Source of the DNA: Escherichia coli | Lineage (GTDB): Bacteria > Pseudomonadota > Gammaproteobacteria > Enterobacterales > Enterobacteriaceae | Strand: one strand, 5' to 3' | Assembly (NCBI RefSeq): GCF_003334305.1 | Contig: NZ_QOWS01000044.1 | Length of the DNA: 8,189 nucleotides | Shown here: positions 3,787 to 7,215 of the stretch, in pieces | Layout of the letters: each line of letters begins with the position of its first letter | Numbering within the stretch: position 1 is the first letter of the stretch | Program-made: the position numbers and the translations under genes | Notes under the pieces: generated by a model | What the model saw: the letters and a program-made list of their open reading frames with translations, nothing else | Databases searched by the model: none | What the model was told of the DNA's origin: nothing

Positions 3787-5121
3787 TTATTTCTGCAATT
3801 CCATACGTTTAATGTCGCCAACTACGAAGAGGTAGCAGACCATCGCCATCAGCGCTGAACATCCCACGAAAACCAGTGCTGCATTGAAGGAGTGCAGTTC
3901 ACTTACCAGGTAGCCAATCACCAGTGGAGTGACAATGGAGGCAACATTGCCAAAGACGTTAAAGACGCCGCCACAGAGGCCAACAATCTCTTTCGGCGCG
4001 GTGTCAGAAATCACCGGCCAGCCCAGAGCACCAAATCCTTTGCCAAAAAAAGCCAGCGCCATCAGCATGACCACCAGCGTGGTGTTGTTGGTGTAGTTAC
4101 ATAAGATGATGGTGGAAGCCAGCAACATTCCCAGCACAATCGGTAGCTTACGTGCCAGGGTCAGGGATAAACCGCGTTTGATCAGATAATCCGAGAAGAC
4201 ACCTCCCAGCACGCCGCCCGCAAAACCACACAGTGCCGGAATCGAGGCGACCAGACCCACTTTCAGAATCGACATGCCTTTTTCCTGCACCAGATAAATC
4301 GGGAACCAGGTGAGGAAGAACCAGGTGATGGTGTTGATAAAATATTGTCCGAAAAATACGCCCAACATCATGCGGTTAGAGAGCAATTGCTTGATGTAAT
4401 GCAGTTTGGGACCGCTTGCTGCCGCGCTGCCCGGCTTTTTGTGGTCCATATCGACCACCGCGCCATTTTCAGAGATAAACTTCAGCTCTTCCGCAGACAT
4501 ACGTGGGTGATCTGTCGGGTTATGAATCAATTTGATCCACAGCGCCGTCAGCACAAAACCAATCACCCCCATAACGGTAAAGACGTGCTCCCAGCCCCAG
4601 GCGAAAGTCAGCCAGCCAAGCAGAGGCGAAAAGAGCGCCAGCGAGAAATATTGCGCCGAGTTAAAGATGGCGGAGGCAGTACCACGTTCTTTCGTCGGGA
4701 ACCAGGCGGCGACAATACGGGCGTTCGCCGGGAATGATGGCGCTTCCGAGAAGCCGAGCATAAAGCGCATAAAGAACATGGAGATCCCTGCCCAGGCCAG
4801 CGGGAACATATCAACAAAGCCTTGCAGGAAAGTGAATAGCGACCAGAAAAAGAGGCTATAGGTATAAACTTTTTTCGAGCCAAACTTATCAAGCAGCCAG
4901 CCGCCGGGGATTTGCATCAGCAAGTAGGCCCAGCCAAAAGCAGAAAAGATGTAACCCATCGAAACCGCACTTAACTGCAACTCTTTTGCCACTTCGGTAC
5001 CAGCAATAGACAGCGTTGCACGATCGGCGTAGTTAACGGCGGTAACAATAAAAATAATCAGTAATATTAAATAGCGGGTATGCACGCCTTTCTTTTTTTC
5101 GTCAACGGTGTCCAGAATCAT
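3787..5121 (-). CDS. garP: Galactarate/glucarate/glycerate transporter, MFS superfamily, 444 aa
   Basis: 444-aa ORF, highly hydrophobic with multiple predicted transmembrane helices typical of an MFS anion:cation symporter. GAGG Shine-Dalgarno about 7 nt upstream of the ATG. First gene of the minus-strand operon. Confidence 0.92.
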   Translation of the reverse strand: MILDTVDEKKKGVHTRYLILLIIFIVTAVNYADRATLSIAGTEVAKELQLSAVSMGYIFSAFGWAYLLMQIPGGWLLDKFGSKKVYTYSLFFWSLFTFLQGFVDMFPLAWAGISMFFMRFMLGFSEAPSFPANARIVAAWFPTKERGTASAIFNSAQYFSLALFSPLLGWLTFAWGWEHVFTVMGVIGFVLTALWIKLIHNPTDHPRMSAEELKFISENGAVVDMDHKKPGSAAASGPKLHYIKQLLSNRMMLGVFFGQYFINTITWFFLTWFPIYLVQEKGMSILKVGLVASIPALCGFAGGVLGGVFSDYLIKRGLSLTLARKLPIVLGMLLASTIILCNYTNNTTLVVMLMALAFFGKGFGALGWPVISDTAPKEIVGLCGGVFNVFGNVASIVTPLVIGYLVSELHSFNAALVFVGCSALMAMVCYLFVVGDIKRMELQK

Positions 5122-5495
5122 TTTATTTACCTCGGGTACTTATGCTGATTTTTATTATTATGGAGAAGGTGTTATTTATGAGTTTCATTTATGCCGTAAC
5201 GGCAATGAACTCGGGAATTAGTATAAGCAGCGCGAGAATAATAATCATTGTGCAAATGCTAATTTAATTAATACTATTTAAATATTATTTTGAGCATATG
5301 CACATAAGGTTGCGCGCTAAAGCACAGATTTGCGCTTTACCTTGCCGGGCGGCACTGCAATCCCTGAAATGATTGACATTGATCACATTTCTGCGTTTAA
5401 ACTCCTGACATTCTTATTTCACCCAATGAAGTCATTTATTTTTAAATGAGACCAGGTCCTCATTTTAATAACCCCTGGCTGGAGAATATTGCACA
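5122..5495. promoter_or_regulatory. Divergent garP / garD intergenic control region (AT-rich)
   Basis: 374-bp non-coding spacer between divergent starts. It holds a very AT-rich tract (about 5240-5300), a TTGACA at 5373-5378, and several palindromes. The gar genes are known to be controlled by the CdaR (SdaR) activator, but I cannot place its sites with certainty. Confidence 0.6.
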
Positions 5496-7067
5496 ATGGC
5501 CAACATCGAAATCAGACAAGAAACGCCAACTGCGTTTTATATAAAAGTTCACGACACAGATAATGTGGCAATTATTGTTAATGATAATGGCCTGAAAGCA
5601 GGAACGCGTTTTCCGGATGGGCTGGAATTAATTGAACATATTCCCCAGGGGCATAAAGTCGCATTGCTGGACATTCCGGCTAATGGTGAAATTATTCGTT
5701 ATGGCGAAGTGATTGGTTACGCCGTGCGTGCAATCCCACGCGGAAGCTGGATCGACGAATCAATGGTTGTACTACCGGAAGCGCCGCCGTTACACACGCT
5801 GCCACTGGCAACCAAAGTCCCGGCCCCCTTACCGCCGCTGGAAGGATACACCTTTGAGGGCTATCGCAATGCCGATGGCAGCGTGGGCACCAAAAACCTG
5901 CTCGGCATCACCACCAGCGTCCACTGTGTGGCAGGCGTGGTGGACTATGTAGTAAAAATCATTGAACGCGATCTGCTACCGAAATACCCGAACGTCGATG
6001 GCGTGGTGGGGCTGAATCATTTGTACGGCTGTGGCGTGGCGATTAACGCACCGGCGGCAGTTGTGCCTATTCGTACCATCCACAATATTTCGCTGAACCC
6101 TAACTTTGGCGGCGAAGTAATGGTGATTGGTCTGGGTTGTGAAAAGTTGCAGCCTGAGCGCCTGCTGGTCGGCACGGATGATGTGCAAGCTATTCCAGTA
6201 GAAAGCGCCAGCATTGTCAGTTTGCAGGATGAAAAGCATGTCGGTTTTCAGTCCATGGTCGAGGATATTTTGCAGGTCGCCGAACGCCATCTACAAAAAC
6301 TGAATCAACGTCAGCGAGAAACCTGTCCGGCTTCAGAACTGGTTGTCGGCATGCAGTGCGGTGGCAGCGATGCCTTTTCTGGCGTAACGGCAAACCCGGC
6401 GGTTGGCTATGCGTCTGATCTACTGGTGCGCTGCGGCGCAACGGTGATGTTCTCAGAAGTCACGGAAGTGCGTGACGCGATCCATCTGCTGACACCACGC
6501 GCAGTGAACGAAGAGGTCGGCAAACGGCTGCTGGAGGAGATGGAGTGGTACGATAACTATCTCAATATGGGAAAAACCGACCGCAGCGCCAACCCTTCGC
6601 CGGGCAACAAGAAAGGCGGTCTGGCAAACGTGGTAGAGAAGGCACTCGGCTCCATTGCTAAATCGGGTAAAAGCGCAATTGTTGAAGTGCTGTCGCCCGG
6701 TCAACGCCCGACTAAACGCGGATTAATTTACGCCGCGACGCCAGCCAGCGATTTTGTCTGTGGCACGCAACAGGTGGCTTCGGGTATCACCGTGCAAGTG
6801 TTTACGACCGGTCGTGGTACGCCGTACGGCCTGATGGCGGTACCCGTCATTAAAATGGCGACCCGCACCGAGCTGGCGAACCGCTGGTTTGATTTAATGG
6901 ATATTAACGCGGGCACTATCGCCACCGGCGAAGAAACCATTGAAGAGGTGGGCTGGAAGTTGTTCCACTTTATTCTCGACGTCGCCAGCGGGAAGAAGAA
7001 AACCTTCTCGGATCAATGGGGGCTGCATAACCAGCTGGCAGTGTTTAACCCGGCACCGGTGACCTGA
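5496..7067 (+). CDS. garD: Galactarate dehydratase, 523 aa
   Basis: 523-aa ORF starting [26 protein letters not shown], with an SAF-like N-terminal domain and altronate/galactarate dehydratase family body. GGAGA Shine-Dalgarno at 5480-5484. Confidence 0.93.
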
Positions 7068-7151: not shown

Positions 7152-7179
7152 TTGCATTACCTTAGTTCAAGCTTATAAT
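7152..7179 (+). promoter_or_regulatory. Putative prlF-yhaV promoter (-35 TTGCAT, 16-bp spacer, -10 TATAAT)
   Basis: Consensus TATAAT at 7174-7179 and TTGCAT at 7152-7157. Overlaps the palindrome aatgcatt (7145-7152) and the tgcatt direct repeat. Shine-Dalgarno AAGGA at 7202-7206. Confidence 0.5.
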
Positions 7180-7215
7180 TTGAGCAGAAAACAGGCTGTA
7201 AAAGGACAGTGAATC

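Follow-up and report, generated by a model that had tools for sequence, protein, structure and literature searches.

The AT-rich tract between the divergent garP and garD genes of E. coli is probably the upstream half of the activator-dependent promoter of garP (garPLRK), composed of a candidate operator for CdaR, here called S1, and an AT-rich spacer, and not a separate nucleoid-protein element. Judged from its letters, the tract would be a composite of a Fur-box-like sequence at its left end, the S1 palindrome and the spacer that leads from S1 to a second box, S2. The palindromic motif of S1 is found in three copies at fixed spacing in this region, is conserved across genera and accompanies gar, gud and cdaR genes. 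The tract is real, but what it shows looks like the ordinary architecture of a promoter that depends on an activator and belongs to a well-known regulon. The regulators CdaR, CRP, Fur and H-NS are already in curated resources, and the tract appears as nothing out of the ordinary, an AT-rich upstream segment of a promoter in the bacterial genome with the best annotation.

The window, meaning the whole stretch of 8,189 nt that was analysed, holds the E. coli K-12-type garK-garR-garL-garP/garD-prlF-yhaV locus. In the annotation rnpB, garK, garR, garL and garP lie on the minus strand, and garD, prlF and yhaV on the plus strand. A scan of the window with Rfam returned rnpB alone and no other RNA element. 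Because the start codon of garP is at 5121 (minus) and that of garD at 5496 (plus), the intergenic span is 5122-5495, which is 374 bp long and 64% A+T; the location of the tract in a divergent gar control region, as described in the earlier note, is therefore confirmed. A 601-nt query centred on the tract matches 5421 of 5426 complete E. coli genomes, with AR_452 being 100% identical. MG1655 differs from the window at 3 positions over these 601 nt, none of them inside the tract, and its coordinates are obtained by adding 3,269,786 to those of the window. For the comparison between species we aligned the garP-garD intergenic regions of 45 other Enterobacteriaceae, retrieved with a GarD query (46 sequences including E. 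coli). Between about 5170 and 5420 no column of this alignment has 10% or more gaps, so that the region is almost free of indels. The features discussed below are collected in Table 1.

Table 1. Features of the gar locus in window coordinates, followed by the promoter modules of three E. coli genes; start sites and -10 elements are putative
Feature	Position	Strand	Sequence and remarks
rnpB (RNase P RNA)	430-806	minus	Rfam RF00010, 318.6 bits, and annotation; directly downstream of garK
Putative garP -10	5220-5225	minus	TATACT; putative start ~5213; leader ~92 nt
Conserved block	5220-5226		AGTATAA
Fur-box-like 19-mer	5234-5252	plus	GAGAATAATAATCATTGTG; 15/19 to GATAATGATAATCATTATC; overlaps garP -35 region
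AT-rich tract	5237-5291		55 nt, 87.3% A+T; MG1655 3,275,023-3,275,077
Conserved block	5245-5259		CATTGTGCAAATGC
S1	5249-5262		14-bp palindromic box TGTGCAAATGCTAA; centre 5255.5; candidate CdaR operator within tract
S1-S2 spacer	5263-5290		28 bp, 96% A+T in E. coli; tract core
Conserved block	5290-5304		TTGAGCATATGCACA
S2	5291-5304		TGAGCATATGCACA; inverted relative to S1; centre 5297.5; adjoins right end of tract
Conserved block	5311-5326		TGCGCGCTAAAGCACA
S3	5313-5326		CGCGCTAAAGCACA (GGCGCTGATGCACA in most species); weaker box; centre 5319.5
CRP (and FNR) site	5369-5390		ATGATTGACATTGATCACATTT; centre 5379.5; alignment block, conserved in all aligned species
Conserved block	5402-5415		CTCCTGACATTCTT
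Putative garD extended -10	5406-5414	plus	TGaCATTCT; within strongly conserved block CCTGACATTCTT
garP module			TTAGCATTTGCACA + 23 nt + TATACT, read toward gene
cdaR module			TAGGCATTTGCACA + 23 nt + TATGCT, read toward gene
gudP module			TGTGTTGTTGCACG + 23 nt + TATACT, read toward gene; box match 10/14 only

The earlier note had placed the tract at 5240-5300 with about 80% A+T. The composition holds (82%), but the string that it quoted lies at 5237-5291 and so begins 3 nt further left. This is the most AT-rich 55-mer of the window, the runner-up having 76% A+T. Its maximal-segment score was reached by 0 of 300 shuffles of the whole window; when the 374-bp intergenic region alone was shuffled, 100 of 2000 trials reached it, which gives a p value of about 0.05 and makes the tract marginally unusual for a region with 64% A+T. 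The tract is richer in A+T in E. coli (87%) than in its orthologues (mean 67%), because the Fur-box-like 19-mer is present only in Escherichia. Single nucleotide differences among E. coli genomes spare S1, S2, S3, the CRP site and both putative -10 elements; inside the tract two were seen (5269 and 5271), both in the S1-S2 spacer.

S1, S2 and S3 share the 14-bp palindromic motif TGWGCAWWTGCWCA. S2 overlaps the tract with its first base only (5291). The centres of S1 and S2 are 42 bp apart and those of S2 and S3 22 bp, so all three boxes lie roughly on one helical face. A repeat finder independently detected the inverted repeat formed by S1 and S2 (12 nt, 92% complementary). The pattern TGTGCWWWWGC, which was derived from these copies, occurs three times in the 8189 nt, always inside the same 78 bp, where 0.15 occurrences are expected. 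In the sequences from outside Escherichia identity to E. coli is 64% for S1 and 90% for S2. S1 is degenerate in many genera, for example CATTGTAATAACGCTCAAT in Enterobacter, and is thus far less conserved than S2. Haycocks et al. gave S3 as a putative second site for CRP.

The same motif is found at other promoters of the pathway. The region upstream of cdaR in MG1655 carries GCATTTGCACA and has the exact 14-mer CATTGTGCAAATGC in common with S1, for which our own arithmetic gives a chance expectation of about 4e-4. A box followed after 23 nt by TAT(A/G)CT is a geometry common to three CdaR-dependent E. coli promoters, those of garP, cdaR and gudP. When 80 loci from other species were searched for the palindrome with at most two mismatches, 78 matches fell into the intergenic region upstream of garD versus 21 elsewhere, a 51-fold higher density. 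The matches elsewhere include some upstream of garP in Yersinia and others that precede cdaR by about 70 bp in Siccibacter (locus L049) and two species of Serratia. Ahead of garD or garP, the arrangement [..TGCACA]+23-24 nt+TATACT/TATAAT is found in Rahnella, Budvicia, Brenneria, Sodalis, Erwinia, Pantoea and Enterobacillus. The motif is common to the known promoters of the regulon (garP, garD, gudP and cdaR), and across genomes it is both conserved and associated with these genes, as is expected of a CdaR/SdaR operator.

According to Monterrubio 2000, as cited by others, CdaR (SdaR) activates garD, garPLRK and gudPXD in common, together with its own gene. In Salmonella, PgarLRK and PgarD reporters driven by the homologous divergent region respond to CdaR, PgarLRK most strongly. 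Rodionov and colleagues state that a comparison of genomes across gamma-proteobacteria led them to predict a site for SdaR; this prediction is mentioned in PMC2996990, where the sequence of the site is not given. We found no CdaR-DNA binding experiments (EMSA, footprint or ChIP) in the literature that was searched. We infer that CdaR is the protein that binds S1, S2 and S3. Given the shared motif, geometry and conservation, S1 would in our reading be the CdaR operator proximal to the garP promoter.

The start sites of garP and garD and the role of the spacer are likewise our inferences from the sequence. The supplement of Kim 2012 has zero entries for gar transcription starts. S1 sits 23 nt from the invariant TATACT that we read as the garP -10, and its centre lies at about -42.5 from the putative garP start; on the same count the tract spans about -24 to -78. 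Read on the plus strand, the putative garP -10 element (AGTATA) is shared by 44 of the other 45 sequences in the alignment, L058 being the exception. A consensus scan of 5050-5560 for promoters and terminators returned zero sigma-70 promoters and zero terminators, which is expected if the promoters are activator-dependent, yet gives no support to this reading.

In the mechanism that we propose, the tract would work in three layers. The layer nearest garP would be the -35 region, which seems to have drifted to a Fur-box-like AT-rich sequence in Escherichia alone. The second layer would be S1, as the promoter-proximal operator of CdaR (SdaR, PucR family), the activator of the pathway. Its centre, about 42.5 bp upstream of the putative start, would be at the position from which an activator of class II type touches RNA polymerase. 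The third layer would be the 28-bp AT-rich spacer that links S1 to its inverted copy S2, 42 bp or four helical turns away. This spacer may be easily deformed DNA with a narrow minor groove, which would let CdaR at S1 and CdaR at S2 cooperate, and would also let the alpha-subunit C-terminal domain (alpha-CTD) of RNA polymerase dock just upstream of S1. The docking and bending roles of the spacer are conjecture on our part. A comparison by eye with the UP element NNAAAWWTWTTTTNNNAAANNN at -59 to -38 (minus strand 5272-5251) gave agreement at 7 of the 14 specified positions, and the canonical UP-element interval is largely taken up by S1.

This arrangement resembles class II activator-dependent sigma-70 promoters such as that of CRP at galP1. 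The garP box lies about 42 bp upstream of the putative start, a good -35 hexamer is missing, and AT-rich DNA is found immediately upstream of the activator box. In class II complexes the alpha-CTD docks immediately upstream of the activator. The difference is that the candidate activator at garP is CdaR, of the PucR family, and not CRP, and that the start site is a predicted one.

The spacer itself has its own pattern of conservation. Its length is exactly 28 bp in 46 of 46 aligned sequences, and its A+T content in the other 45 has a mean of 79% (range 61-96%), although identity to E. coli is only 47% among the 42 sequences from outside Escherichia. Length and composition are therefore kept and the sequence is not. 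This pattern fits a structural role and not a sequence-specific protein site. Since across 45 other species the 28-bp core has drifted in sequence but retained both length and A+T bias, the AT-richness of the tract probably matters structurally, and to this extent the idea of the earlier note survives. Against this, mutation bias might be a partial source of the A+T bias of the spacer.

One might instead suppose that the AT-richness has no function, and that unconstrained intergenic DNA has simply drifted towards A+T between functional sites. The poor conservation of the spacer, which also carries the sole E. coli differences seen within the tract, and the marginal result of the intergenic shuffles (p about 0.05) would agree with this. 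But the 42-bp spacer between S3 and the CRP site, which is equally unconserved and equally fixed in length, has 48% A+T in the same 45 genomes in which the S1-S2 spacer has 79%, and the length of the latter is invariant. We therefore consider pure drift unlikely. The view of the earlier note, that the tract is curved DNA bound by H-NS, IHF or Fis that silences or insulates the divergent gar promoters, appears to us similarly improbable. In its favour are the 87% A+T of the tract, the confinement of this extreme composition to Escherichia, as a lineage-specific H-NS overlay would fit, and a modest predicted bend of 38 degrees per 31 bp centred at about 5282. This bend lies at about the 93rd-96th percentile of the window in two dinucleotide wedge models; it is equalled or exceeded in 185 of 500 shuffles of the tract, so that the prediction gives no intrinsic curvature beyond composition. 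The phased A/T runs that had been described are not there either: the run centres (5255.5, 5263, 5267.5, 5277.5, 5281.5 and 5289) are spaced irregularly by 7.5, 4.5, 10, 4 and 7.5 bp, a 10-11 bp periodicity is absent, and the AA/TT Fourier power of the tract is lower at 10-11 bp than at 12-13 bp. Consensus sequences of the three proteins are also missing from the tract. For IHF (WATCAANNNNTTR, AT-rich on its 5' side) the five best intergenic matches all reach 7/9 and none of the five is in the tract, for the 15-bp Fis core (G at -7, C at +7, AT-rich centre) the best tract match has 9 of 11 specified positions, and for the high-affinity H-NS nucleation motif TCGATAAATT the best is 7/10. Scans of the tract with Lrp, ArcA, FNR and NarL consensus sequences gave no convincing site. 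With 55 bp between flanks of about 50% G+C (33-60% in the adjoining 100-nt windows), the tract is also short of the hundreds of base pairs of extended AT-rich DNA along which an H-NS filament could spread. Regarding occupancy, H-NS is listed with Fur and CdaR among the known garP regulators in Table S9 of Myers 2013, which cites White-Ziegler 2007; the latter is a temperature and hns expression array study, and effects seen on arrays may be indirect. Myers et al. 2013 produced or collected genome-wide maps of H-NS (with and without oxygen), IHF and Fis. For the FNR/CRP-type site at 5373-5386 their Table S6 gives the overlap with Fis (ChIP-seq), H-NS and IHF (ChIP-chip) as 'None', an entry that concerns this neighbouring site, 82-136 bp from the tract, and not the tract itself, and in their Table S7 the height of the FNR peak is 0.76 in the wild type versus 0.74 in an hns stpA double mutant. 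The region is, moreover, occupied in vivo by CRP and FNR. Silencing or insulation by nucleoid proteins is thus left unsupported, as the tract has no consensus site and no excess curvature and the ChIP tables report no such protein nearby. In comparison with proU, bgl, hns and virF, where H-NS nucleates or DNA is curved, garP shares a high upstream A+T content and a listing of H-NS that comes from arrays. It differs in that its tract is short (55 bp), unphased and devoid of a high-affinity motif, with no ChIP enrichment reported beside it and with adjacent transcription-factor sites that are occupied in vivo.

A third alternative concerns the left third of the tract and is compatible with the CdaR promoter reading. 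The 19-mer at 5234-5252 could be a weak Fur operator over the -35 region of garP which makes garPLRK iron-responsive in Escherichia; we regard this as possible, but on balance doubtful. The 19-mer is a close match to the Fur consensus and the best one in the whole window, and when sequences were shuffled 2000 times, a match of at least 15/19 turned up in 10 cases for the intergenic region and in 5 for the tract (about 0.25-0.5%). Chen et al. 2007 predicted a weak Fur cluster (10.4 bits) for garPLRK, the position of which is not stated in the text, placed garPLRK among the Fur-dependent genes of McHugh 2003, and reported a gel shift in which Fur binds a predicted site within garP. In Myers 2013 garP is filed under Fur-controlled operons. 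However, a Fur dimer over the -35 region is expected to repress, and Chen et al. 2007 report garPLRK as Fur-activated and the effect of Fur on most non-iron genes as indirect. The box is also confined to Escherichia (E. coli, E. whittamii and E. albertii); in the alignment the other genera are GC-richer and unrelated at this place. The gar box resembles a Fur box in its match and in its location over the -35 region, the usual place of Fur repression, but it is single, weak, found in one genus only and part of a carbohydrate operon for which one source reports activation by Fur and not repression. Further matches to the Fur consensus (13/19) are found at 5041-5065 and 5141-5162, in the first codons and the leader of garP.

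A more far-reaching version of the CdaR promoter reading can be imagined. The 28-bp spacer might be a selected architectural element, with a CdaR oligomer that bridges S1, S2 and S3 on one face of the DNA and couples garP to garD, and the 96% A+T and the new Fur-like box of Escherichia might add an iron input or an H-NS/temperature input. We think this rather unlikely as a whole. If it were true, such an input would have been added to a sugar-acid operon that is used in the inflamed gut. Divergent regions such as araC-araBAD, melR-melAB and xylAB-xylFGH offer a comparison. Like them, the gar region serves two divergent units, has three boxes in helical phase, at distances of 42 and 22 bp, and a high-affinity CRP site, and keeps its spacer lengths fixed across genera. 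We know of no looping or repression role for CdaR, which is a difference from regions of the araC-araBAD type.

On the garD side, the site at 5369-5390 is bound by CRP. CRP footprint-seq gave a Kd of 1.9 nM in vitro at MG1655 3275166, and in ETEC there is a CRP ChIP-seq peak at this site. Myers et al. 2013 report an FNR peak in ChIP-seq whose predicted site is TTGACATTGATCAC, which corresponds to 5373-5386 of the window. As the CRP site is also an FNR target, the two proteins may compete at the garD promoter. With the putative garD start at about 5421, CRP would be centred at -41.5, S3 at -101.5 and S2 at -123.5; this reading of the garD promoter is less certain than that of garP. Compared with araBAD the order in the garD direction would be reversed, with CRP in the promoter-proximal position and the specific boxes upstream of it. 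For E. coli garD, a CdaR promoter of class II type was also considered and rejected, since neither S2 nor S3 is followed 23-24 nt downstream by a -10-like hexamer.

In Rahnella, Brenneria, Sodalis, Erwinia, Pantoea and Enterobacillus a CdaR-type box is found before garD in the promoter-proximal position of CRP. The loci with [..TTGCACA]+23-24 nt+TATACT/TATAAT before garD are L060, L062, L066-L068, L070, L071, L076 and L082. The E. coli-like genera have a CRP box (..GATCACA) there instead, and the half-sites of CdaR (GCACA) and CRP (TCACA) differ by one base. An exchange of CdaR and CRP operators, or a cross-recognition between them, is possible.

The use of galactarate and glucarate helps E. 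coli and Salmonella to grow in a gut that is inflamed or has been treated with antibiotics, and glucarate biosensors make use of CdaR promoters. A map of the gar region at the level of single bases, with its three phased boxes, fixed spacers, CRP site and genus-specific Fur-like box, would aid the design of such sensors and the interpretation of regulatory SNPs.

Several other observations were made in the window. The spacer between garD and prlF is predicted to bend more strongly than any other part of the window (61 degrees near 7189 in the Trifonov model) and contains, at 7171-7185, the sequence GCTTATAATTTGAGC, which fits the core pattern of Fis perfectly. By its sequence, 7171-7189 would be a more likely site for a nucleoid protein than the tract. 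A small ORF of 41 aa at 5142-5267, or of 29 aa at 5179-5267 when begun at the second ATG, which follows the Shine-Dalgarno sequence GGAGAAGG, extends into the AT tract and is without annotation in RefSeq or MG1655. It was rejected as a candidate gene, as it is not conserved and the alignment shows indels and unrelated sequence there. A half-box ATATTGCACAATG at 5486-5498, which has the same sequence as the boxes of S1 and cdaR in their promoter-proximal half, lies over the garD start codon and may be a coincidence within the conserved ribosome-binding region. The putative garD leader, whose RNA folds no better than shuffled sequences (z = 0.87), contains the palindrome AAATGAG-N8-CTCATTT at 5444-5465. 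In E. whittamii and E. albertii its arms are kept and its centre differs, and it is absent from other genera, where the region has indels. This palindrome might be bound by a protein or form a small hairpin.
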